This document shows, piece by piece, positions 15,750 to 27,783 of a stretch of DNA of 64,000 nt (its first letter is position 1; each line of letters opens with the position of its first letter). Source of the stretch: Coraliomargarita sp. (GTDB lineage Bacteria; Verrucomicrobiota; Verrucomicrobiia; Opitutales; Coraliomargaritaceae); contig OZ244160.1 of the NCBI GenBank assembly GCA_965216325.1, forward strand, positions 1,440,001 through 1,504,000, read 5' to 3'. A program made the translations under genes and the position numbers. The notes below the pieces were generated by a model. The model ran no database searches. It worked only from the letters and a program-made list of their open reading frames with translations, and was not told the origin of the DNA.

Positions 15750-16310
15750 ATGCGAATTACCGGAGGTCGAGCACGCGGCATCGCACTCAAAACGCCCGCA
15801 GGCGATCACACACGCCCTGCGACAGATCGCATGCGCGAGTCGATTTTCTCAAGTCTGGGACCGAGTATTGAAGGCTGTCACGTGGCGGATTTGTTTGCCG
15901 GCACCGGCAGTTACGGACTCGAAGCCCTCAGTCGCGGAGCGGCGAGTGCGGATTTCTACGAAACGGATCGGAAAGCACTGACCTGCCTCAAACAGAATAT
16001 TCAGGCTGTGCTCCGCAGCTGTGAGCTCGCAGCACATTCCGCCAAGATACACAGTAGGGACATCTACACGCTAAAAGACGCAGCCCCGCGCTACCATTTG
16101 ATCTTTCTCGATCCGCCCTACGGCACGATCGCAGGGAATCTAAACCGCATTTTCGAATGTGCCGTCAGCCCCATTGCCACGGGTGATGCACGTGCGGTAC
16201 TCGAGCTGCCGGGCAATTTGACCCCGGAAATTGACGGCTGGAAACTCGTGCGCCGCCTAGGGAAAGCCGGCAAAGACAAACCAACCGCAGCGATCTTTGC
16301 GCGCGCTTAG
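15750..16310 (+). CDS. rsmD: 16S rRNA m2G966 methyltransferase
   Basis: [29 protein letters not shown]. Confidence 0.93.
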
Positions 16311-16312
16311 AA

Positions 16313-16340
16313 GCGGCACGTTACGGATAACGCGCCCTAG
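16313..16340. repeat. Single REP arm (family A)
   Basis: GCGGCACGTTACGGATAACGCGCCCTAG matches right arm of 253-324. Confidence 0.7.
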
Positions 16341-16342
16341 CT

Positions 16343-16744
16343 TTATTGCTGGGCCTGATAGATCACGTCCTCAGCAACGAGGACATTGTCCGCACGAACC
16401 ACGCGCTTATTGCCATCGGCGAGAACTAAGACTTTCGGCTTCCAGCTTTTTGCTTCTTCAGCTTGAAACTGCGCGAAAGACATGATGACCAGCAGGTCGC
16501 CAATCGCACCGAGATGCGCAGCCGCACCGTTCAGCGAAATCGTGTGTGAGCCTTTGGGAGCTTCAATCGCGTAGGTCTCGAAGCGCTCGCCATTGGCGAT
16601 ATTGGCGACGAGAATCTTCTCATACGGCATGAGACCGATCTGTTCCATCAATGCAGAGTCAATCGCCAGACTGCCCTCATAATGAAGAGCGCGGTCCGTT
16701 ACCTCTGCGCGGAGCAGCTTGGATTTAAGGAGCGTAACTTGCAT
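16343..16744 (-). CDS. panD: Aspartate 1-decarboxylase
   Basis: [13 protein letters not shown] cleavage site, [15 protein letters not shown]. Confidence 0.95.
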
Positions 16745-16860
16745 AGATCTAATAGGTTCGGATTTAGACAAATTGTCAAAAGGGCGCACAAGTTGGCGAA
16801 TCCCTCTGAGTTTGGCAATTCTGGAATTATTGCCAGATTCTAGCAATTCGAATGCCTAAA

Positions 16861-17988
16861 TCAGGTTTCTTCGCGACGCACGACGACGGAAAACACGCAA
16901 GTTGTGCCCTGTCCCTGCTCACTTTGAATGCTGAGTTCGCCCCCAAGACGATCCGCAATGGTGCGGCAAAGCGAGAGCCCAACCCCGAGCCCTCCATGCG
17001 TGCGCTTGAGCGAGGAATCCTCTTGTGAGAAAGCATCGTAAATACGACCACTCTGAAGATAATCCGGATCAATCCCCGGGCCAGTGTCCTTAATTTCGAA
17101 GCGCAATTTTACATTCGAGTCTGCTAGAGACTCAAAGGAAACCGACAGCGTAACCTGCCCCTCTGCCGTGAATTTGACCGCATTATGCAGCAGTTTACGC
17201 AAAGCGATTCGAATCTCGTCCTCCGGACCTGAGACAAATTGAGGCACATCCGATGGAATATCCGTAACAAGGTCGACCAAGTCCTTGGGTTTCTCGTCAT
17301 TCACCAACTTGATCATCATCGTCGCCGGGTTAAACGAGCCGGACGAGACGTCCTCCTCACCCATGGAAAGCCGGGCATAAGTGAAAATGTCCTGCACATG
17401 CCCGAAATAATCCTTACTACAATCACGAATAGTCCCGAGGAATTCCTTCTGTTCCTCGTCCAGTTCGGTATCCTCCAGCAAATCGAGAAAACCCAAGATG
17501 CCATTCATAGGCGTATTCAACTCGTGGCTGACAATCTCCAGAAAATTAGTCTTCGCCGCATTCACATCGTTGCGGATCACGGTGTCCTGCCGCGTATTAA
17601 ACAGAAAGCTTTCATAGCAACGTCCGACGACGGTCTGAATGTGATCGAGGTCAAAAGGCTTCTTTAAATACTCGGATGCCCCCAGCGAAATCGCCTGCCG
17701 AGCCGTCTCCAGTGTCTCATACGCAGTCAACACAATGACCTCGGTATACTTATCGAGCTTCTTTACCTCACGGAGCACATCAATGCCACTCATGCCACGC
17801 ATCCGAATGTCGGTAATGACCAAGTCGAAGGGTTGCTCGGCCGAGAACTCCACCGCCTCTTCTCCCGATGTGGCAATGGTCACATCGTAGTCATCGCAAA
17901 AGATCATATTCAGCGATTGGCGTGGGCCTTCCTCATCATCGACGACGAGCATTCGTTTGGTTGCTAGAGCAGAGTGGTCTTCGGTCAT
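16861..17988 (-). CDS. Soluble receiver-histidine kinase hybrid (REC-HisKA-HATPase)
   Basis: LVVDDE...VITDIRM...LTA...[32 protein letters not shown]. Confidence 0.92.
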
Positions 17989-18085
17989 GAGCGGTTCGGT
18001 TGGTAGAAAGTTAATATCGAGCAATCACTGCTACAATGATTCGGTAGTACACGGTTCAGCGTCAATCAATCCATCTTTCGTTGCG

Positions 18086-19531
18086 CTACAAACTGGGTGA
18101 CGGATCCATTTGTAGGTTCAATTTTAACCTGATCGCACGGACCACTGCGGTCACATCAAAGGGCTTCTGAATTACAAGGTCACCTTCGGCCACACGACCA
18201 TCCGCACACAGCATGCGCTTATTCCGAGCACTCGAATATGCCAACTGGACCGCGCCCTGCAGGACCGCCTGTAGCCCGCGTATACGCTCAAGAACTTCCG
18301 GCTCAAAGCGGTCCAAATCGAACAGCAAACAATCCACGGCCCCAGACGCGATCAAATCAGCAGCTTCATCCGCGTGCGCACAATACATCACATGCGCAGC
18401 ATCTTCGAGCAATACGCTTAAACTATCTGCAATCGGTTCATATGCATCCAGCACCAACAAATTCGGACGTAGCGCACGAACGGCCTGCTCCAGCCCAGAG
18501 CGAGCCATCTCAACAACATGCGCCCAACTCTGAGCGACCTCATCATGCTCTGGCTGAAAAACTGTCAGCTTTAAATCCTCCAATTGAACATCCCTCAACT
18601 CAGGCCCAAGCTTTCGGCGCACCTGTGATAACGTCTGCCCCGGAAAAATACAGGCACACACATAGGCATCCAACGGCTGAATCAAATCTGCACTTAACTC
18701 CACAGACAACTGACTTTGCTTCAAGGACGCATATAATACGCCCGCCTGTTGCTTCGACTCAAGGAGCGCGACACTGACTGGCGAATTCTGATATTTACCA
18801 CGATAATACTCACGCTCTAAAGCCCCAAGCAGTTTAGACCGACGCTTACTCAAATCGTAAATAACGTATGCCGAGACCATCCCCGTACCGGGGTCGAAAC
18901 ATCTGCGAGCCGCAAATAGAAAGCGCCCTTCGACTTCAAAGTGCGCGTCAGCACCATTGCCAACGCAGTCTTGAAGCGCAAGAAGCACATCACATCGCTC
19001 GGGATGCTGCGGTTCACTCACTAGGCCAAGTTGCTTCCAAGCCAAGGCATTACCTGACATCAGATCGCCTGCAGCATCAAAACACAAAATACCCAACGGC
19101 AACTGATCGATCAGAAACTGCAGTACTTTAATCTGACGCTCCGTATGGCGCTGCTCCTTCGCCCGCCCATATAAGGCCGCGAGAAAATCTGCCATCGAGC
19201 CCATCAAACGCAAATCTTCCGCACCAAACGGACGCTGATCTTTACGACCCGAAACACGAAGAAAGCCGCCTTCTGCAGCACCTGACAAGGGAAGCACAAC
19301 GCGCCCCTGCTCAAAAACACGAGCCGATGACTCGCCATCGGCATTCAGCTCATCCTCGATCAGGAAGCTCCCCCTCAAATATGGGTCAGCCTCCACCGCA
19401 TTGCTAAGCGAATGACAGAAGCCTTGAAAGTCCGAGAATGAGCCAATTGCCCGCGCAAAACGCCGATACGACTCGGACAGTGACGCAGCCGTCATTTCAA
19501 TCGGCGCTGTATGTTCTTCAGACGGTTTCAT
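18086..19531 (-). CDS. Multidomain signalling protein: GAF-like, PAS-like, degenerate GGDEF-like, C-terminal REC-like
   Basis: GFLRVSGRK..RPFGAEDLRLM; QLPLGILCFD; LEREYYRGK..SPVSVALL with no GGDEF; CLLFDLD...QKPFD. Confidence 0.6.
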   Translation of the reverse strand: MKPSEEHTAPIEMTAASLSESYRRFARAIGSFSDFQGFCHSLSNAVEADPYLRGSFLIEDELNADGESSARVFEQGRVVLPLSGAAEGGFLRVSGRKDQRPFGAEDLRLMGSMADFLAALYGRAKEQRHTERQIKVLQFLIDQLPLGILCFDAAGDLMSGNALAWKQLGLVSEPQHPERCDVLLALQDCVGNGADAHFEVEGRFLFAARRCFDPGTGMVSAYVIYDLSKRRSKLLGALEREYYRGKYQNSPVSVALLESKQQAGVLYASLKQSQLSVELSADLIQPLDAYVCACIFPGQTLSQVRRKLGPELRDVQLEDLKLTVFQPEHDEVAQSWAHVVEMARSGLEQAVRALRPNLLVLDAYEPIADSLSVLLEDAAHVMYCAHADEAADLIASGAVDCLLFDLDRFEPEVLERIRGLQAVLQGAVQLAYSSARNKRMLCADGRVAEGDLVIQKPFDVTAVVRAIRLKLNLQMDPSPSL

Positions 19532-19549
19532 AGAATCCAGTACTAGGCC

Positions 19550-21691
19550 CTAGTCACAAGGCAGAGAGATTCGAAAACATGTGCCATGATTCAGCTCAGA
19601 ACTGACCGTAATATGTCCTTGGTGACGCTCAATGATTTTACTCACAATTGCCAGCCCCAGGCCGGTCCCGGCAGAGCCATGCCGAGCTCCGGTATCACGC
19701 GAGGTAGCAAACGGGTCGAAGATACGGTCCTGAAGGTCTTTGGAGATTCCCGGCCCATTGTCTGATATCTCCATCTCTAGCCAACGCTTCCGCTCATAGC
19801 GCCCTCCGCCACGCAAACTTGCCCGAAATGTGATCAAGCCCAATTCAGGTCGTTCTCCCCATTCACTAATCGCATTGATGCCATTCTCAATGATGTTGCG
19901 AACCACCTGTATCAGCTGCTCCAAATCTGCGTGTAATCTCGGCATATCTTTATCAAGCACGACCTCTAGCTGAACATTCTCAAGTGCTAAGCGCCCACTC
20001 ACCCCCGATTGAGCTTCAAAAATGACATCACGGATCGCAACACTCTCCATCGGACGCTTAGCATCCTGCGCAAAGGCAGAAACCCCCTCTACAATACCAA
20101 AGATTCGCTTTACATCACGTTGCACCGTAGCACTGAATTCTTCCGTCAACTTAAGTTCGGTCGGATTCTTCTTCAACAAACTCGTCATCGTTCGAACCGA
20201 AACCAATGGATTGCGTAACTCATGCGACAAGCCCGCAGCCATCGTCCCCAGAGAAACCAATTTCTCGACCTGATTGGACATCCGCTCCATCTCCCGAGAC
20301 TTAATGGTTAAGGCCAACTCTGCACAAAGATTTTCGAGCAATATTAGATCAACATCTGAGAAGGCCCCCGAACGGCGACTCGCACCGAGGACTAAGAAGC
20401 CATACAAGCTACCCTGAACTCCGATCGGCAAAAAGACATCCGAACTACGAAAGGGCAGATCCGAGTTAAACAGAGCCTGAAAGTTACTCCGAAAAGAACT
20501 CGATCGTTCCATCTTTTCCTCAAGGAAAATCGCATGACGTTGCCCCCGCAGGAAATCAACCAGCACTTCCAAGTTCGCACTTTCAATCGTTTTGACCGGC
20601 GTCCGCTCCCCTTGTATCGCCCGACATTCAAAACTAGAAGCCAAATCCCTGCGCACATAAACGGATGCAAAATCTAAACTCATTGCCCCGAAAATTCGCT
20701 CAACGACTACATCATAGACATCTCCTTCCGCTAGGCTTGAAACCACATCATCTGAAAGTTGACGCAATTCTTGGCGATACCCAAGCCTTCCCGAAATCAA
20801 TCGAGTCTGAATCAAATCATCAACATAACGAACAACAGGAGGGCATACAAACATCAACAGGGCACTAAGCAGTGTAAGCGCAGGCCACCAAAACAAAAAT
20901 GAACTTGGTGAAAAATCGACATAAGCAGCCTTGAGGACCAGAACCAATCCGACGGCGCAGAGCGCACCAAAAATAATTGAGAACAAAATCAGCCCCAAAA
21001 TCCGAAAAGCCATCTCACTGAAATCAAGGATGCGATATTTCAACATCGTATACCCTAAACCCATGAGATAGACAATCACCAGACCATGGCCAAAGGGCGG
21101 CACTTGAATCTCAAACCAAAGCAAAAAATTAGTCGAACCTCCTGCAAATCCGACTGCTGTCCCAATAAGTATGTAACGAAGTTTGTTCTTTGCCTCGATC
21201 TCCGACTTGCAGTATGTGTGAAACAGTAAGCCCACCCCCAAAACAGACATTAAGACATAGCCGCCAATGTAAACAGGAAACAAAACGCCGGGGACAGGCC
21301 AAAATTCAAAGCCCAAACGAGGTTCGACGCCTAAGACAATAAACTTCCCAAAATTTAAGCAGAATAAAATGGCTGCTAGCAGATATCCAGCATAGGCGAA
21401 CGCACGAAACTTCAGATTTTCGGTCAGATTAATTACAAAATGAAAATATGCGTACGGCACGAAGATGGATGCCCCTACCAAATACTTCACCCAGTATACT
21501 GCAGCAGCCTCCGTTTCAGCCAATTGCCATAACATATGAGCAAGAGCCCAGCAAAATATCGTAAAATTGAAGAAACAAAAAGTCTGATTCTTTCCATCGT
21601 CCAACTTAAGACCCTTAAGTAAAACGGATGCTATAAAATACAGCGTCAGGGCAGAAATAAAAAATGAACTAACAATCAAATATGCGATCAT
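19550..21691 (-). CDS. Membrane sensor histidine kinase (multi-TM N-terminus, GAF, HisKA, HATPase)
   Basis: About 290 aa hydrophobic N-terminus; GFLVLG...[33 protein letters not shown]. Confidence 0.93.
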
Positions 21692-23373
21692 CTTACAACC
21701 GATATTAAATTTGCCTGATCGCCAAAAGACCTAAAGAACTGCGCCCCCGAAAAACCCGCCAACCTAACCAGGTCAACCAGCTCTTCCTCACTATAAAACA
21801 CATAATGCCCCTCATCTTCTTTCAGCTGAATTGCGCCCGCAGCACTTAACAAACTCCTAGCAGAGTCTAGCGCATCTTCGGAGTCTGCTTCAGTAACAAA
21901 GCCCTTGTATATCAATGATAAATCACAGTACGGCTTCATACTTGAGACAATCATCTTACCCCCGGGCTTGAGTACACGATGAAGTTCAGACAATAAGACA
22001 CTGGGCTGCTTTAGGTAGGAGATTAATAGGCTGCAGCAGACTCGATCAATTGAAGCATCTGCGAAAGGCAAGCGCACTTGACTGGCTCCTCGACCATCTA
22101 ACTCATCTAAATCGAATCGATAATACAACATATCCAATCCCTCTCGGCCATGAATTTCATGAGTTAATGAGGAATGGCGTCGATGCGCCTCCGATAGGCC
22201 TTTGCCCGTAAGATCCAGACCAAAATATGTGGTCGGCAATTCCAGTGGATCTCGATTCTGCAAAGCTAAATCTCGTAAACACCAAGCGCCAAACATCCCA
22301 TTACCGCAACCACAATCCAAATAGACGAGTCCCGGTTCGGTAACTCCTAGGCATGAACCGATCAACGAAAGATAATCCCTGTAAGCACCGACAGCTTCAA
22401 GCATCTTGTATTTATCTAAATATTTTGCCCAAAAGTCCCCTTCACTCTCTCGAAGAGGGGCCATCGCCCTAAGGCGTTCGCGCTCGACCTTATTCTGACG
22501 AAAGACCTCCCGCCGGTCTGGGCTTAAGATTTCATACAGTTCATCCTGCCCTGCAAAACGCCCATGCCGACTCACATACACTGCCTGCATAATGGCTTCT
22601 ATCGCTAACTTCGGGTTCTCCATCAACTCGTGCATCGCGCCATCGACCAGCCGCAACTTTACACGTTCCGACTTAGCCGCCAAAGCATCTACTTCAGCCA
22701 ATTCAACCCATGCGTCTCTCTTCGCCGGAAAAAGAAATATGTCGCACTTAGCCTTACAGACATCCTCTAGAGTTCCATCTAGATCCTGCATGTCCGAATC
22801 AACAGCGGTCTTAAGAAACTGGTCTATATTGACTTCATGGCCCAAAATATCCCCAACACCTTGAATCGCTCCATCCATGTAGGCATTCACGATATCCTTC
22901 TGGCAAATCGTAGTGATTGTTGAGCGAAAGTTGACAATTGGAACCAAACATACCAAGCGCTCAATTCGATGATCGAGACTCGCAGCGCGAATCGCACAAC
23001 GCCCCGACATACTATTAGCCTGCAGCGTTACTGAGTGCACATGATGTTGAATCTCAAGAAAATCAATTGCAGCGAGTATATCATCCACTCCATTCGGAAG
23101 CGTATAATTCTGAATTTCGCCCTCGCTTTCTCCAATGTGATTTGTCTGGTCAAAGCGCAACACACGGAACCCATTTACAGCAAAGTAATAAGCGAGTTGT
23201 AAGTTATTCTTTTTCGACTGCCCATACTTCGGGGCCATCACAACAAAAGGAGCACTCGGCATCTTACTAGGCGTGTCGATGTACCCAACAATCTTCTTAC
23301 CATTGCGAGAAGGGAAGACAACCACTTCGCTCCGGATACTTATCTCGCTGGCATCCTGAACCTCAATCGACAT
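21688..23373 (-). CDS. LuxD-like acyl-ACP thioesterase fused to class I SAM methyltransferase
   Basis: [19 protein letters not shown], nucleophile ANSMS (AxSxS), [13 protein letters not shown]-terminal [30 protein letters not shown]. Confidence 0.85.
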
Positions 23374-23570
23374 GACTAGTATTGATATTCACTGCGCGCA
23401 TCAGAGCCAGCTATGTATTCAATTTCAAATACAAAATACGCTAGAGACCGCATAAAATGGCTAAAATTCACCTAATTTGAAAAGAATTGAAGTTGCACTA
23501 ACGCTCAATAAGTCTCAGAAATATCAAAACCGCGCTCAGCGGCAAATCACAACACTGCGCTACCTTTTGA

Positions 23571-25574
23571 GTGACCCACCTATTGTTCATCACGTCTGGA
23601 GATGACATCCCGGAACATCTACGGGAGGCATTCACAGCGCCGGAGATACGCACGGTCACGCGAACAACCGTCAGTGAAGTTCAACAAGCACTGCAACATG
23701 GAGCCTTCGACATCGCCCTGCTCCATGGCGATTTTCAGAGTGATCACTTGCGACAAAGTATCGAAGACCTACGCGTACACTCGGCAAACGTCTTCATCAT
23801 TGCAATCGCAACAACTTACGACGAGTCAGACGAAGCAGTCGCGTTCGATGCAGGCGCAAATCTGTATTTTGCCGAGCCTATTCCAACGCAGACGATTACG
23901 CGCCTAGTGCAGAGTCAGGCAGCCGGCACACAGGAAGCCCCAAGCCAGACAATTCGCCATAGCCACCAGGAATCGGCAGACGACCACTCGACCGCTTCCA
24001 CCCTAAAAACCATTCGCGATTTCTCCAATATCCTGAGCTACAGCTTGGATTACAAGGCCTTCACGCAGCAGTTTATCCTCAAGCTGCGTGACCACATAAG
24101 TTTTAGTCGAATTGGAATTTTTCTCGAAGCCTCAGCCAAACAATCTCTGGTTAAGAGCAAACCGACCAAGCCGCTGGAATGCGTCGCATCCCTTGGACTA
24201 CCGTCCGACCTCGTCGACTGCTTTCAGCTCAGTCGATCAGTTGGCATCGGGCGCACGCTCTGCGAACACCCCCGGATCTTAAGTAAGCAGCAGCATACCC
24301 AGAACCCGTTTGATCATGATGCGTCCATTCGCAAGGAATTTGACATCCTTGGCTGCCACACCGCAGTGCCGATCACAGACCGCGAGCAATTAATCGGACT
24401 CGCGGTGCTCAATGGACCCGTCACCGGCCGTCACTACTCGGAGGCAGAACTGCAACTCCTCTTCATTCTGATGGAAGAGCTCGGACTTGCGATACGTAAT
24501 AGCCGCTTACACACCGAGCTCGCGAGCCACGGACAACTCATTGACAGTGTACTGAGCTCCATGTCCAGCGGTGCAATTGTCATCGGCGAAGACCTGAGTA
24601 TTCTCTACACGAATCGGTCAGCCAATGAATTTCTGAAGCTACCCAGGCTCGACAACACGCCACCGCTGTGGGCAGATTTACCCACCAAGCTTGCGGGCCC
24701 GCTGCATCGTGCAGTCGAAAAAGGTGAGCTCCCTGAGCCCTTCACGCTGAATGCAGCCGACGGCACGATCTACCGGGCCTCAGTCATTCCATTCACTCAG
24801 GAAGATGAATTAGCCCTCCTTCCACGGCCAGTCATGGTGATCATTGAAGACTTCACTAACATTGAAGCCAGTAAAGCATCCGAAGTCGCCAACACACGCA
24901 ATGAAGTCGTCAGCCTCATCGCCAAACGCTTTGCCCATGAGATCCGCAACTCGCTGGTGCCACTGTCAACGCATGCACAATTGATCGACAAGAAAATCGA
25001 GCAGCCCGCGTTTCAAGCATCACTCAAGTCCGCTCTGCTCAAGGAAACCAACCGCATTAAGCGCTTCAGCGAACAAATGCTCTATCTGGCGCAAGACTCG
25101 ATCTCAGCCGACAACGGACTCGACCTGGTTCAGTTAATCCACGCTGCGTTCAGTGCAGCAAAGAAACATTTAGACGCTCGCGAAGTCGAACTGGTCACCA
25201 CTGGATCGCCAGAAGATTGCCTGGCCAAGGGAAATACTGAAGCACTCAGTTTTGTCTTCCAGGAGCTCTTCCTCAACGCGATCCAATCACAGGGAGGCCC
25301 AGGCACCATCGAAATCGAAATCACAACTGGCGGAGCCGATACCCTGCGCATTCGAATCAAAGACAGCGGACCGGGCTTCTCCCAAGAAGTCATGCGTCAG
25401 GCCACTGAACCTTTCTACACAACACGCAACACCGGAGTGGGATTGGGACTTTCCATTGCACAGAAAATCATCCAAGAGCACAACGGCCAGCTACGCCTGA
25501 ATGCACGCACTCCCGGAGCAGAATGGGATATTGAAATCGAACTACAATCACTACTCACCACGACCAATGGATAA
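23571..25574 (+). CDS. Cytoplasmic histidine kinase (pseudo-REC, GAF, PAS-like, HisKA, HATPase)
   Basis: GTG start; FAHEIRNSL, NAIQ, DSGPGF, PFYTT, GVGLGL; REC reads DIALLHG and AEP. Confidence 0.88.
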   Translation: MTHLLFITSGDDIPEHLREAFTAPEIRTVTRTTVSEVQQALQHGAFDIALLHGDFQSDHLRQSIEDLRVHSANVFIIAIATTYDESDEAVAFDAGANLYFAEPIPTQTITRLVQSQAAGTQEAPSQTIRHSHQESADDHSTASTLKTIRDFSNILSYSLDYKAFTQQFILKLRDHISFSRIGIFLEASAKQSLVKSKPTKPLECVASLGLPSDLVDCFQLSRSVGIGRTLCEHPRILSKQQHTQNPFDHDASIRKEFDILGCHTAVPITDREQLIGLAVLNGPVTGRHYSEAELQLLFILMEELGLAIRNSRLHTELASHGQLIDSVLSSMSSGAIVIGEDLSILYTNRSANEFLKLPRLDNTPPLWADLPTKLAGPLHRAVEKGELPEPFTLNAADGTIYRASVIPFTQEDELALLPRPVMVIIEDFTNIEASKASEVANTRNEVVSLIAKRFAHEIRNSLVPLSTHAQLIDKKIEQPAFQASLKSALLKETNRIKRFSEQMLYLAQDSISADNGLDLVQLIHAAFSAAKKHLDAREVELVTTGSPEDCLAKGNTEALSFVFQELFLNAIQSQGGPGTIEIEITTGGADTLRIRIKDSGPGFSQEVMRQATEPFYTTRNTGVGLGLSIAQKIIQEHNGQLRLNARTPGAEWDIEIELQSLLTTTNG

Positions 25575-26757
25575 GCGAATCCACACACTCTTCACCCTCG
25601 GCAGCAGCCTTCTCCTCACCGGATCCATCGCAACGGCAGCTGCGACGCGAGTCGCCTACATCGATCCATTTGCCACTGCCCGTGGGAATGCATTTACCGC
25701 AACGGCCGACAACCCATCTGCGGTCTTCTACAATGCAGCAGGTCTGACGCAATTAGAAGGCAGTCAGGTGCAAGCCAACGTGTTCGCGATCTCTCTCGCC
25801 TACGAACAGGACAGTAGCCTTGGACTCGGCAGTCAGGATATGGACGATGACTTCCAACCTATCCCCAGCTTCTTCGCTGCTCATCGCTTTGAGAATAGCG
25901 ATATCGCGCTGGGCTTTGGCGCCTACGCACCGTTCGCCCTGGGCTCCGATTGGGGCAGTGATGCTGACTTTGCAGTCATTGACCCGCGGGTTCCCTACGA
26001 AGGTGAACTCGCCTACGTCAAATACCACCTCGCTCTCGCATGGCAGATTACTGAAACGCTCTCTGTTGCAATCGGCACGAGCTACGACGATGTCGATCTG
26101 GAGGTGAAAGCCAACGCACTGAAATTTGATAGCGATGGCGACGACATCGGCTTTTCCGCATCCGTTCTCTGGCAACCGAATGAACGGCATTCCTTCGGCC
26201 TCAACTACCAAGCCCGCACGAACATCAGGCATGAAGGTAAAGCCGACCTCCTCGTCGCACCAGACACCTTTCTACGCTTCGACGCGGAAGCCGATTTGGA
26301 CTACCCCGAGTCAATCGTTTTCGGATACTCCTACCGCCCTAATGAGCATTGGAATATCGAGTTCAACCTCGACTGGACGAACTGGGACATCATCGACACA
26401 TTCGACCTAAAGGGTCCTCCCGGTGATCTTGGCTATGTTTTAAACTGGGAATCTGCCTTTATCTGGGAACTCGGAGCCACTCGCTATTTTGACAACGGCT
26501 GGCACATCAGCGCAGGCTACACCTTCGTGGAAGATGCCGTGCCGGACGAAGGCTTCTTGCCTATAGTGCCAGACAATGACCGCCATTTCTTCTCGATAGG
26601 CGTCGGGCAAACGATCGGGCAATTCTACTGGCAAGCAACTTACCAGTATACCTACTCAGACGAACGCTCGGTCAACAACCCGAACCTACCCTCCATCGCA
26701 GGAGATTATGACTTAGACAGTCAAGCAGTTGCGTTCTCGCTCGGCTATCGCTGGTAA
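25567..26757 (+). CDS. FadL/TodX family outer-membrane hydrophobic-compound transporter
   Basis: Signal peptide; ARGNAFTATADNPSAVFYNAAGLTQL hatch; beta-strand pattern; C-terminal YRW; start overlaps kinase 3' end. Confidence 0.9.
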   Translation: MDKRIHTLFTLGSSLLLTGSIATAAATRVAYIDPFATARGNAFTATADNPSAVFYNAAGLTQLEGSQVQANVFAISLAYEQDSSLGLGSQDMDDDFQPIPSFFAAHRFENSDIALGFGAYAPFALGSDWGSDADFAVIDPRVPYEGELAYVKYHLALAWQITETLSVAIGTSYDDVDLEVKANALKFDSDGDDIGFSASVLWQPNERHSFGLNYQARTNIRHEGKADLLVAPDTFLRFDAEADLDYPESIVFGYSYRPNEHWNIEFNLDWTNWDIIDTFDLKGPPGDLGYVLNWESAFIWELGATRYFDNGWHISAGYTFVEDAVPDEGFLPIVPDNDRHFFSIGVGQTIGQFYWQATYQYTYSDERSVNNPNLPSIAGDYDLDSQAVAFSLGYRW

Positions 26758-26759
26758 GC

Positions 26760-27494
26760 TCACTCCCACAGACCCTGCTCAATCATCTGTTGAGTCGCCT
26801 GCTCGGCCCAGCCTCGATTCGCGGCAGGACTGGCTGGGCTCGGGTGTAAGACCCGACCGACCTGGACATCCATCCCCTTAAGCGCTTCGTTGGCACGCGT
26901 CTGCGCGAAGGCTCCCACACCAATCAACCATTCGGGCTGCAGGGCTTCCACCAACTCACGAAGATGCTGATCACACACCTCATAGAGTGCTGCGATCTCG
27001 GCTGCCGGTAACTTATCGGGCGTGCGATTTTTACCGCCCTCCTCCATGAAGACCAAAGGGCAGTAGTTCGCGACGAAATGATTGGCAAAAAATGCATCCG
27101 CGGAGCCAAAGCGCTCTTTGAACAGCCCCCAGAGTCGACGACCACTGACTTCGCTACGTTGACAGTCAAAGCCGTCAATCGGGCGCTTCGGGTGCTCATT
27201 GGCAGGCTTCGCAACCGGCTCATGAATCCCCACCCAATCACGGATCAATGAAATCTCGCCAAACGGAACCCCACATTGCGCCATCCCAAACGGCCCCGGA
27301 TTCATCCCAAGGAACACGACCTGCTTTTTCGACGCTGCATAGCGCTCCAAATACACTTGGTGCGGCTGCCATGCGTAATCAAGTGGATTATACACCACAG
27401 CGGTTGGAGCCGAAAACGCCAAGGCGTCGACGGCAGCCGACAGTTTCCGCGCAGCGGCAATGCTAGCTTTGGCAATGGAACTACTTGGCATCAT
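26760..27494 (-). CDS. SMUG1-type (family 3) uracil-DNA glycosylase
   Basis: GMNPGPFGMAQCGVPFG, SEVSGRRLW, LHPSPASP. Confidence 0.92.
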   Translation of the reverse strand: MMPSSSIAKASIAAARKLSAAVDALAFSAPTAVVYNPLDYAWQPHQVYLERYAASKKQVVFLGMNPGPFGMAQCGVPFGEISLIRDWVGIHEPVAKPANEHPKRPIDGFDCQRSEVSGRRLWGLFKERFGSADAFFANHFVANYCPLVFMEEGGKNRTPDKLPAAEIAALYEVCDQHLRELVEALQPEWLIGVGAFAQTRANEALKGMDVQVGRVLHPSPASPAANRGWAEQATQQMIEQGLWE

Positions 27495-27783
27495 TATCCT
27501 GCCCCTGCACATCACTGTGCCCAAGATCACGCTCTGGTGCGATCTGATCTCGAATCAATTGCTTCAACTCCTTCATCTCCGGAAAGCCTCCCTTCGACTT
27601 GCGATCCCAGATTTCGTGCCCATCCAGCGTCACTAAAAAGCGACCACTCGTTTCCGACGGGCGCAAGGTCACGCCACCCAGTTCTTTCTCAAAAGTCGTC
27701 AGTAATTCCTGTGCAGACCAGCCGGCCCGAAGTAACCAGCGACAACCGGTGCAGTATTCAATTTCAACAGTTGGCTTCATCAA
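27481..27783 (-). CDS. SelT/SelW/SelH (Rdx) family protein
   Basis: IEYCTGCRWLLRA, WDRK..GGFPE. Confidence 0.9.
   Translation of the reverse strand: MMKPTVEIEYCTGCRWLLRAGWSAQELLTTFEKELGGVTLRPSETSGRFLVTLDGHEIWDRKSKGGFPEMKELKQLIRDQIAPERDLGHSDVQGQDNDAK

Follow-up and report, generated by a model that had tools for sequence, protein, structure and literature searches.

A LuxD-like hydrolase-methyltransferase fusion paired with a 7TM-GAF histidine kinase in Coraliomargarita and beyond: a candidate synthase and receptor for a fatty-acyl methyl-ester signal

The CqsA-CqsS pair of Vibrio and the LqsA-LqsS pair of Legionella are alpha-hydroxyketone signalling systems. LqsR is described as part of the Lqs system. 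In Ralstonia, according to the Phc literature, the methyltransferase PhcB converts the cognate fatty acids to methyl 3-hydroxymyristate or palmitate, the kinase PhcS senses the PhcB product, and the two genes are neighbours in phcBSRQ; the same sources describe PhcR as a single protein with receiver and kinase domains, and report that PhcB and PhcS sequences group by signal type. The present locus lies in a 64,000-nucleotide stretch of Coraliomargarita sp. (assembly GCA_965216325.1, contig OZ244160.1, positions 1,440,001 to 1,504,000), referred to as the window, in which a single 561-codon frame fills positions 21688-23373 of the minus strand, the plus strand there being closed by stops. Its product (P0001) joins a LuxD-like hydrolase to a class I S-adenosylmethionine (SAM) methyltransferase, and its TGA is overlapped, as ATGA, by the ATG of a sensor histidine kinase gene, as read directly in the sequence. 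By analogy with PhcB-PhcS, the fusion and this kinase, which carries a seven-transmembrane (7TM) block and a GAF domain, may be the synthase and the receptor of a fatty-acyl methyl-ester signal, a proposal that stands about an even chance of being correct.

The fusion itself is a real and conserved feature. Pfam Acyl_transf_2, the LuxD family, matches residues 47-253 of the protein (E 8.2e-28, 97.9 bits against a cut-off of 20.3), and the best match among the sequences of solved structures is the Vibrio harveyi myristoyl-acyl carrier protein (ACP) thioesterase LuxD, 1THT (E 1e-20, query residues 33-291). The same entry is the top neighbour of an AlphaFold model (pLDDT 87.2, pTM 0.83, from a 37-sequence alignment) in both Foldseek (E 2.1e-16, TM 0.82 on the target) and VIA-align (Z 30.8, root-mean-square deviation (rmsd) 2.9, 278 aligned residues; runner-up Z 27.6). 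The alignment with 1THT puts S121 opposite chain residue S114, D220 opposite D211 and H248 opposite H241; the three 1THT residues are taken here to be the catalytic triad of LuxD. These three positions and the SAM motif D353-x-G355-C356-G357-x-G359 are invariant in 37/37 aligned family members, picked for spread from the best 120 of 291 relatives. An earlier note on this DNA had proposed a LuxD-type N-terminal domain, with the aspartate in DAWV and the histidine in AMHELMEN in LuxD-like contexts, followed by class I methyltransferase motifs. This description holds, with one amendment given below, every quoted motif being found in the translation: ANSMS at residues 119-123, DAWV at 220-223, AMHELMEN at 246-253, LDCGCGNG at 352-359, GLDLT at 385-389 and RVLKPGG at 466-472. 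The two checks that the note had suggested, a hidden Markov model search and structure prediction, likewise bore it out, with matches to Acyl_transf_2 and to Methyltransf_11 and Methyltransf_25, and with a confident model whose closest solved fold is LuxD.

The C-terminal half belongs to the class I SAM methyltransferases. Methyltransf_11 matches residues 352-476 (E 5.4e-12), with weaker matches from the related Methyltransf_23 and Methyltransf_25 models; motif I (D353-C-G-C-G-N-G359) is present, the acidic D387 is conserved and the fold is Rossmann-like. A helical lid precedes it, with a conserved QNKxER..FWxxYL. The closest structures, TmtA (5EGP; Z 20.9, rmsd 5.3, 209 aligned residues) and OxaG (5W7K; Z 20.5), are generic small-molecule methyltransferases, and with none of the functional models tried does this half rise above noise (23 bits against 400 for the Mtf2 fatty-acid O-methyltransferase; 22 against 185 for BioC). 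Automatic JGI names of relatives that include 'pimeloyl-ACP methyl ester carboxylesterase', together with the weak BioC match, might suggest a BioC/BioH-type pair for a biotin precursor, in which malonyl-ACP is methylated and the methyl ester later removed. This is scarcely credible, given that the BioC model TIGR02072 reaches 22.4 bits against a cut-off of 184.95 (20 bits in the genome search), that a better BioC-like gene lies elsewhere in the same genome (C1:1073330-1074019, 127 bits, full length), that no biotin genes occur in the cassette, and that the fusion is absent from 290/301 sampled Verrucomicrobiota genomes.

The resemblance to LuxD comprises membership of the same Pfam family, a triad at the same alignment positions, the AxSxS elbow, and an R-x-D...H-x-G-x-S-x-G loop common to both proteins. 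The two nonetheless differ in that P0001 is only ~22% identical to V. harveyi LuxD, with a methyltransferase in the same chain and a sensor kinase as its coupled partner, whereas LuxD is found with a fatty-acid reductase and luciferase. The earlier note had remarked on the absence of lux genes, and this extends to the whole genome: a profile search of its 3.06 Mb (one contig, 99.98% complete, 24,000 bases as N) gave no match to the LuxC and LuxE families (PF05893, PF04443), and Acyl_transf_2 occurs in a single copy. That P0001 is a LuxD orthologue is ruled out by the lack of luxC and luxE and by the scores of the NCBI LuxD equivalog models, which fall below their cut-offs (NF052253, 91 bits against 420; PRK13604, 87 against 529).

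The nucleophile is the one point on which the description in the earlier note has to be amended. It was read as AxSxS rather than GxSxG; the AxSxS elbow (ANSMS) is there, but a classical GxSxG is present too, in the form of G81-E-S83-E-G85 (window 23119-23133), which aligns on GLSSG of LuxD. Among the 224 two-domain proteins gathered in this analysis, which are not a random sample, R73, D75, G81 and S83 are conserved in all 224, the elbow serine S121 is kept in 199, and the complete S-D-H triad is intact in 199. The remaining 25, all with long N-terminal extensions (PilZ/REC forms), have G, D or N in place of the elbow serine, and the histidine is often missing as well. The loop serine S83 may itself be functional, or else the hydrolase domain of these triad-less lineages may have turned into a binding module. 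The loss of the triad in some relatives that keep the SAM motifs, and the placement of a methyltransferase and an esterase beside a sensor kinase, could also be taken as signs of a CheR/CheB-like pair in one chain, which would methylate and demethylate a cassette protein, for instance the kinase, for adaptation. Such a pair is very improbable: the hydrolase is nearest to an acyl-ACP thioesterase (Z 30.8) and not to CheB, no methyl-accepting coiled-coil domain was found in any cassette protein scanned, and the SRPBCC fusions and beta-ketoacyl synthase (KAS) neighbours described below point to lipids.

The family extends well beyond Coraliomargarita. Of the 291 relatives found in a word-indexed search with P0001, all but one of the best 120 carry both domains in 533-665 aa, the lone exception being a 398-aa piece on a 2.9-kb contig, and the named relatives among these 120 belong to the Opitutales (Puniceicoccaceae, Opitutaceae and Coraliomargarita). 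The cultured Coraliomargarita akajimensis has a copy 53% identical to P0001 (P0024), and Thalassobacterium maritimum one that is 64% identical (L003). A HMMER search of 1.84 billion representatives returned 1831 matches at E<=0.001, with 193 at E<=1e-30, and many of the two-domain matches are 680-1490 aa long with the fusion module at the C-terminus. Same-architecture clusters in a protein atlas come most commonly from Verrucomicrobiota, Omnitrophota and Nitrospirota, PilZ being present in those of Nitrospirota, and fusion loci occur also in Myxococcota by the automatic taxa of the atlas. Within Verrucomicrobiota the fusion is an accessory gene of patchy distribution, present in 11/301 sampled genomes and in 7/20 of its own family, and missing from the listed small genomes (1.3-2.3 Mb); these and the following genome and locus counts include related strains, which are not independent, and are given as counts with no statistical test.

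The kinase accompanies the fusion almost everywhere. Among 66 Verrucomicrobiota genome loci with the fusion, where a locus was testable if it had enough DNA on the relevant side, the 7TM kinase lies directly downstream in 64/64, a 481-aa regulator is nearby in 55/58, a divergent kinase in 57/62 and a FadL channel in 44/55. The first 300 residues of the kinase match in 12/301 Verrucomicrobiota genomes, which include all 11 of the fusion genomes, with the two genes adjacent in each, and only one genome of the 301 (G210) has the 7TM sensor domain without the fusion. In metagenomes a single-protein query (P0147) gave no relative; a query with an alignment of the long forms did, and of the 80 loci so fetched 78 contain the fusion frame and 61 extend for 400 nt or more beyond it. 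A full-length 7TM-GAF kinase homologue lies within 300 nt of the fusion in 54 of these 61 and at less than 4 kb in 4 more, and was not found near the fusion in 3 (L115, L147, L162). The fusion enzymes at the metagenome loci are 30-48% identical to P0001 and differ in their N-terminal domains; the partner kinases in L118, L116 and L088 have the same architecture by Pfam, one of the three with a doubled 7TM block.

This near-obligate, translationally coupled pairing inside a conserved signalling cassette argues for a signalling role over one in bulk lipid metabolism. The earlier note had seen in the fusion a free-standing metabolic enzyme of possible use for biodiesel; its domain calls stand, and its interpretation finds partial support, the proposed chemistry being retained below and the free-standing role disfavoured. 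An enzyme for bulk production of fatty acid methyl ester, with the kinases incidental, would be compatible with the domain chemistry, and is nevertheless very improbable in view of the ATGA coupling, of kinase pairing at 64/64 and 58/61 testable loci across phyla, and of an enzyme that is never found without the sensor in 301 genomes and is patchy even in its own family (7/20 sampled genomes). The biodiesel angle is secondary to the signalling reading.

Several loci depart from the simple pair. The 7TM domain of G210 (C2:249850-250602) lies in a 1300-aa frame with no fusion, and G195 has a second copy (C110:17037-17753, 967 aa) beside the pair; by sequence, these extra copies may be 'solo' receptors. 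Partner kinases of ~970-1000 aa with two tandem 7TM blocks ahead of the GAF-kinase core occur at L116:8855-11785 and L121:10712-13642, and further in L124, L125, L129, L130, L145, L155 and L165. A 7TM kinase is found on each side of the fusion in L088, L092 and L097. On one strand of L103 (3233-12351) stand a 7TM kinase, a receiver, a PilZ-Methyltransf_20 protein (449 aa), a second receiver, an SRPBCC-LuxD-methyltransferase, a second 7TM kinase and another receiver. No specific similarity was detected between the PilZ-Methyltransf_20 protein and the fusion methyltransferase (hhalign probability 4%), and L103 thus appears to place two unrelated methyltransferase lineages on one receptor type. 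Three metagenome contigs (L122:4525-6061, L160:410-2743, L163:3-2012) have the fusion gene broken up over two or three frames, which could be due to frameshifts, assembly errors or decaying copies.

The longer relatives carry a variety of domains before the fusion module. A Pfam scan of 25 of them found PilZ in 17 (mostly as two stretches), REC in 7, PAS in 6 and Polyketide_cyc/SRPBCC in 2, with 7/25 showing no recognisable domain in this region; the PilZ consensus keeps RRxxxR and NISxxG. The N-terminal extensions of the metagenome enzymes include PilZ, REC-PAS-PilZ and the lipid-binding SRPBCC, and a SRPBCC/Polyketide_cyc domain is fused to the enzyme in P0130, P0141, L088 and L098. Scanned frames after the kinase encode a REC-sigma54-HTH activator and a REC-HD_5 protein (HD-GYP-type) in L118 and a REC-HD_5 protein in L137, and single receivers are common after the kinase in other distant cassettes. 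Where genes lie between fusion and kinase, they include a KAS and a FAD amine-oxidase-type oxidoreductase (L123:9673-12353, L143:9666-12855), to which the L143 cassette adds a nitroreductase; other gap loci contain an iron-containing redox enzyme (L120) or a 461-aa frame of no assigned family (L094). In L128 (1534-7786) a KAS, a FAD oxidoreductase and two short-chain reductases lie just upstream of the fusion. The ketoacyl synthase and reductase neighbours, together with the SRPBCC fusions, point to a small molecule derived from a fatty acyl chain.

The regulatory domains bring in the main rival explanation, namely that the fusion is the output of the cassette, an enzyme switched on by the kinases and receiver proteins (and by c-di-GMP in the PilZ forms) that remodels membrane or storage lipids, perhaps through release and methylation of fatty acids or through action on phospholipids, with the 7TM kinase sensing some other membrane cue or the state of the membrane. 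REC, PAS and PilZ domains before an enzyme (PilZ in 17/25 scanned long relatives) are what a regulated effector usually shows. No transcription factor accompanies the three kinases and two receiver proteins of the Opitutales cassette, so that an enzymatic output would close the circuit, and the automatic JGI names of relatives include lysophospholipase/methyltransferase. An output enzyme is harder to reconcile with strict cross-phylum pairing with a single sensor domain (7TM plus GAF) while the regulators vary, or with the dedicated KAS and reductase genes of some cassettes, which suit a special small molecule. We consider an output role rather unlikely, though by no means negligible. The two roles are also not exclusive, as autoinduction loops regulate their own synthase.

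A synthase and its receptor would account for these features as follows. For a LuxD-like hydrolase joined to a SAM methyltransferase, the simplest chemistry to propose remains the one in the earlier note, in which a free acid is released from an acyl thioester and then converted to its methyl ester. The LuxD-like domain would take a fatty acyl chain from an acyl-ACP or acyl-coenzyme A thioester onto Ser121 and release the acid, the carboxylate of which would be O-methylated by the fused methyltransferase to give a neutral, hydrophobic methyl ester. The ester would partition into membranes and be read there by the loop-less multi-helix block of the 7TM-GAF kinase, which would phosphorylate the cassette's receiver proteins (a GAF-PAS-REC protein and a REC-kinase), and the FadL-type channel could serve for passage of the hydrophobic molecule across the outer membrane. 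FadL has reportedly been linked to long-chain acyl-homoserine lactone signals in rhizobia (PMC9938287). A hydrophobic cargo would be favoured by the SRPBCC fusions, the FadL channel and a sensor with no periplasmic domain, and strict pairing with one sensor type while the regulators vary is, as far as these gene arrangements indicate, the pattern of a synthase and receptor rather than of an effector and regulator. In other phyla, synthesis is probably gated by cyclic di-GMP (c-di-GMP) and by phosphorylation, because PilZ and REC-PAS domains are fused to the enzyme there and the cassette encodes a REC-HD-GYP protein, which could close a c-di-GMP loop onto synthesis. We infer the substrate, the product, its diffusion between cells and its identity with the ligand of the kinase. 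A wider proposal, to be held somewhat more tentatively than the pair itself, is that the fusion makes an undescribed, phylum-spanning methyl-ester autoinducer, which the kinase reads in the membrane and whose synthesis PilZ and REC gate in many lineages.

A number of observations weigh against a synthase and receptor. O-methylation of a carboxylate is assumed: the nearest solved folds are S- and N-methyltransferases, the methyltransferase half shows no specific similarity to any characterised carboxyl methyltransferase, and the chemistry of every member of the fusion family is a prediction. Hydrolysis is also not universal in the family, the elbow serine, and often the histidine with it, being absent from 25/224 relatives. 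An enzyme that is the output of signalling would just as typically bear PilZ and REC fusions, adjacency fits both a kinase that senses the product and a kinase that controls the enzyme, and the Opitutales cassette is without a DNA-binding regulator. Indirect searches with the methyltransferase half gave no link to PhcB: on its own (281 aa, against targets of 154-492 aa) it found 34 matches, none of them named from Ralstonia, of which 12 are fusion-family pieces and the rest generic methyltransferases at <=45 bits. A profile of this half gave 2147 matches (length range to 573 aa), the best 120 of which all belong to the fusion family, and matched 0/401 sampled Pseudomonadota genomes at E<=1e-15 (6 candidates scored per genome).

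If the wider, phylum-spanning proposal is true, Verrucomicrobia would have a cell-to-cell signalling chemistry assigned to them for the first time, and fatty-acid methyl-ester signals would have a second route of synthesis, evolved independently of PhcB. If the synthase-receptor reading is right, the known range of fatty-acid methyl-ester signalling, a few plant pathogens of the Burkholderiales, would widen to take in abundant environmental phyla, a class of candidate ligands could be named for HisKA_7TM, a sensor domain as yet uncharacterised, and c-di-GMP would be seen to connect directly to the making of an extracellular signal. A literature search, with most subscription journals outside its reach, found no paper on a LuxD-methyltransferase fusion, and the literature found that names HisKA_7TM gives no ligand for it.

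The genes around the fusion form two divergent operons (Table 1). The 713-aa partner kinase belongs with HisKA_7TM kinases (PF16927, 32 bits against 28.6, plus HisKA and HATPase_c); its first 285 residues form, by hydropathy, ~9 hydrophobic helices joined by short loops, the 7TM block plus two more, with no periplasmic domain, and its HisKA domain lies at 481-541. The 481-aa regulator has no Pfam match in the window copy, and among 33 aligned relatives Response_reg is found in 25 and GAF_2 in 25; the alignment drew on 32 of 50 loci with a called frame, after L035 was dropped for an in-frame stop and L040, L044 and L054 as a precaution. Its profile finds receivers among PDB sequences at E 1.8e-10, and its model (pLDDT 82.1) has a receiver-domain structure match at Z 15.2. 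The middle region has a beta-alpha order, and Foldseek ranks PAS-GGDEF-EAL proteins highest (E 2.5e-5, but TM 0.19), which is only a hint, from the model, of a degenerate GGDEF-like domain; the matches listed by VIA-align for this protein are all receiver domains, with none for the middle region. The 387-aa REC-kinase holds the same position in the Puniceicoccaceae loci L003, L005 and L066, and is beside FadL in some Opitutaceae loci. The 667-aa divergent kinase has no hydrophobic segment by hydropathy, and the likely start of the FadL channel gene, at 25567, gives an 8-nt overlap with the stop of this kinase. The called frame of panD begins ~34 codons before its Pfam match, and the true start is probably later. 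A consensus promoter scan of 16000-27600 found 9 promoter-like sites against 9.4 expected, none above chance in the region between the two operons, and a terminator scan of the same interval found no convincing terminator inside the operon.

Table 1. Features of the cassette and its flanks, in window coordinates
Feature	Position	Strand	Evidence
LuxD-like hydrolase::SAM methyltransferase gene (P0001)	21688..23373	-	Open reading frame; Pfam Acyl_transf_2 and Methyltransf_11; AlphaFold model
Alpha/beta-hydrolase (LuxD-like) domain, residues ~12-272	22558..23340	-	1THT best by sequence, Foldseek and VIA-align; conservation
Hydrolase-domain residues: S121/D220/H248 and invariant R73-x-D75 and G81-E-S83-x-G85 motifs			
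Helical lid and class I SAM methyltransferase, residues ~285-561	21691..22521	-	Pfam; invariant columns; structure matches
713-aa sensor histidine kinase: HisKA_7TM (11-224), GAF (325-463), HisKA, HATPase	19550..21691	-	Pfam
481-aa cytoplasmic regulator: GAF, PAS, middle region ~230-345, C-terminal receiver 355-475	18086..19531	-	Relatives, profile, model
387-aa receiver-controlled histidine kinase, REC-HisKA-HATPase	16861..18024	-	Pfam
panD (aspartate 1-decarboxylase), after the cassette	16343-16846	-	Pfam; also in Puniceicoccaceae loci L003, L005, L066
Divergent intergenic region between both operons, 197 bp	23374..23570	.	Sequence
Divergent 667-aa cytoplasmic kinase: weak REC-like N-terminus, GAF, PAS-like, HisKA, HATPase	23571..25574	+	Pfam, NCBIfam
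FadL/TodX-family outer-membrane channel	25567..26757	+	Pfam Toluene_X E 1.1e-38; signal-peptide-like N-terminus

Set beside the Phc system, the Coraliomargarita cassette differs in several respects. The available parts of the Phc literature do not describe PhcB as carrying a LuxD-like domain, and they place the phospho-histidine of PhcS at 230, whereas in the partner kinase the HisKA domain follows the 7TM and GAF regions; no LysR output of the PhcA type was identified, and the phylum is a different one. Kinship of the fusion methyltransferase to PhcB is not established, and the likeness to Phc is best regarded as an analogy. It is a likeness of arrangement nonetheless, as far as the same sources go: in both systems a SAM methyltransferase gene lies directly upstream of, and in the same orientation as, a membrane histidine kinase gene, and the receiver-plus-kinase protein PhcR has a counterpart in the 387-aa REC-kinase. 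The LuxD-like domain of the fusion would, moreover, supply the release of free acid, a step left open in the accessible Phc literature.

The Cqs and Lqs systems offer a second comparison. Their synthases are PLP (pyridoxal phosphate)-dependent acyl-CoA transferases of unrelated chemistry, and their receptors belong to another family. In outline, though, they resemble the proposed pair, with an acyl-derived hydrophobic autoinducer and a synthase gene that lies beside the gene for a multi-helix kinase with no periplasmic domain.

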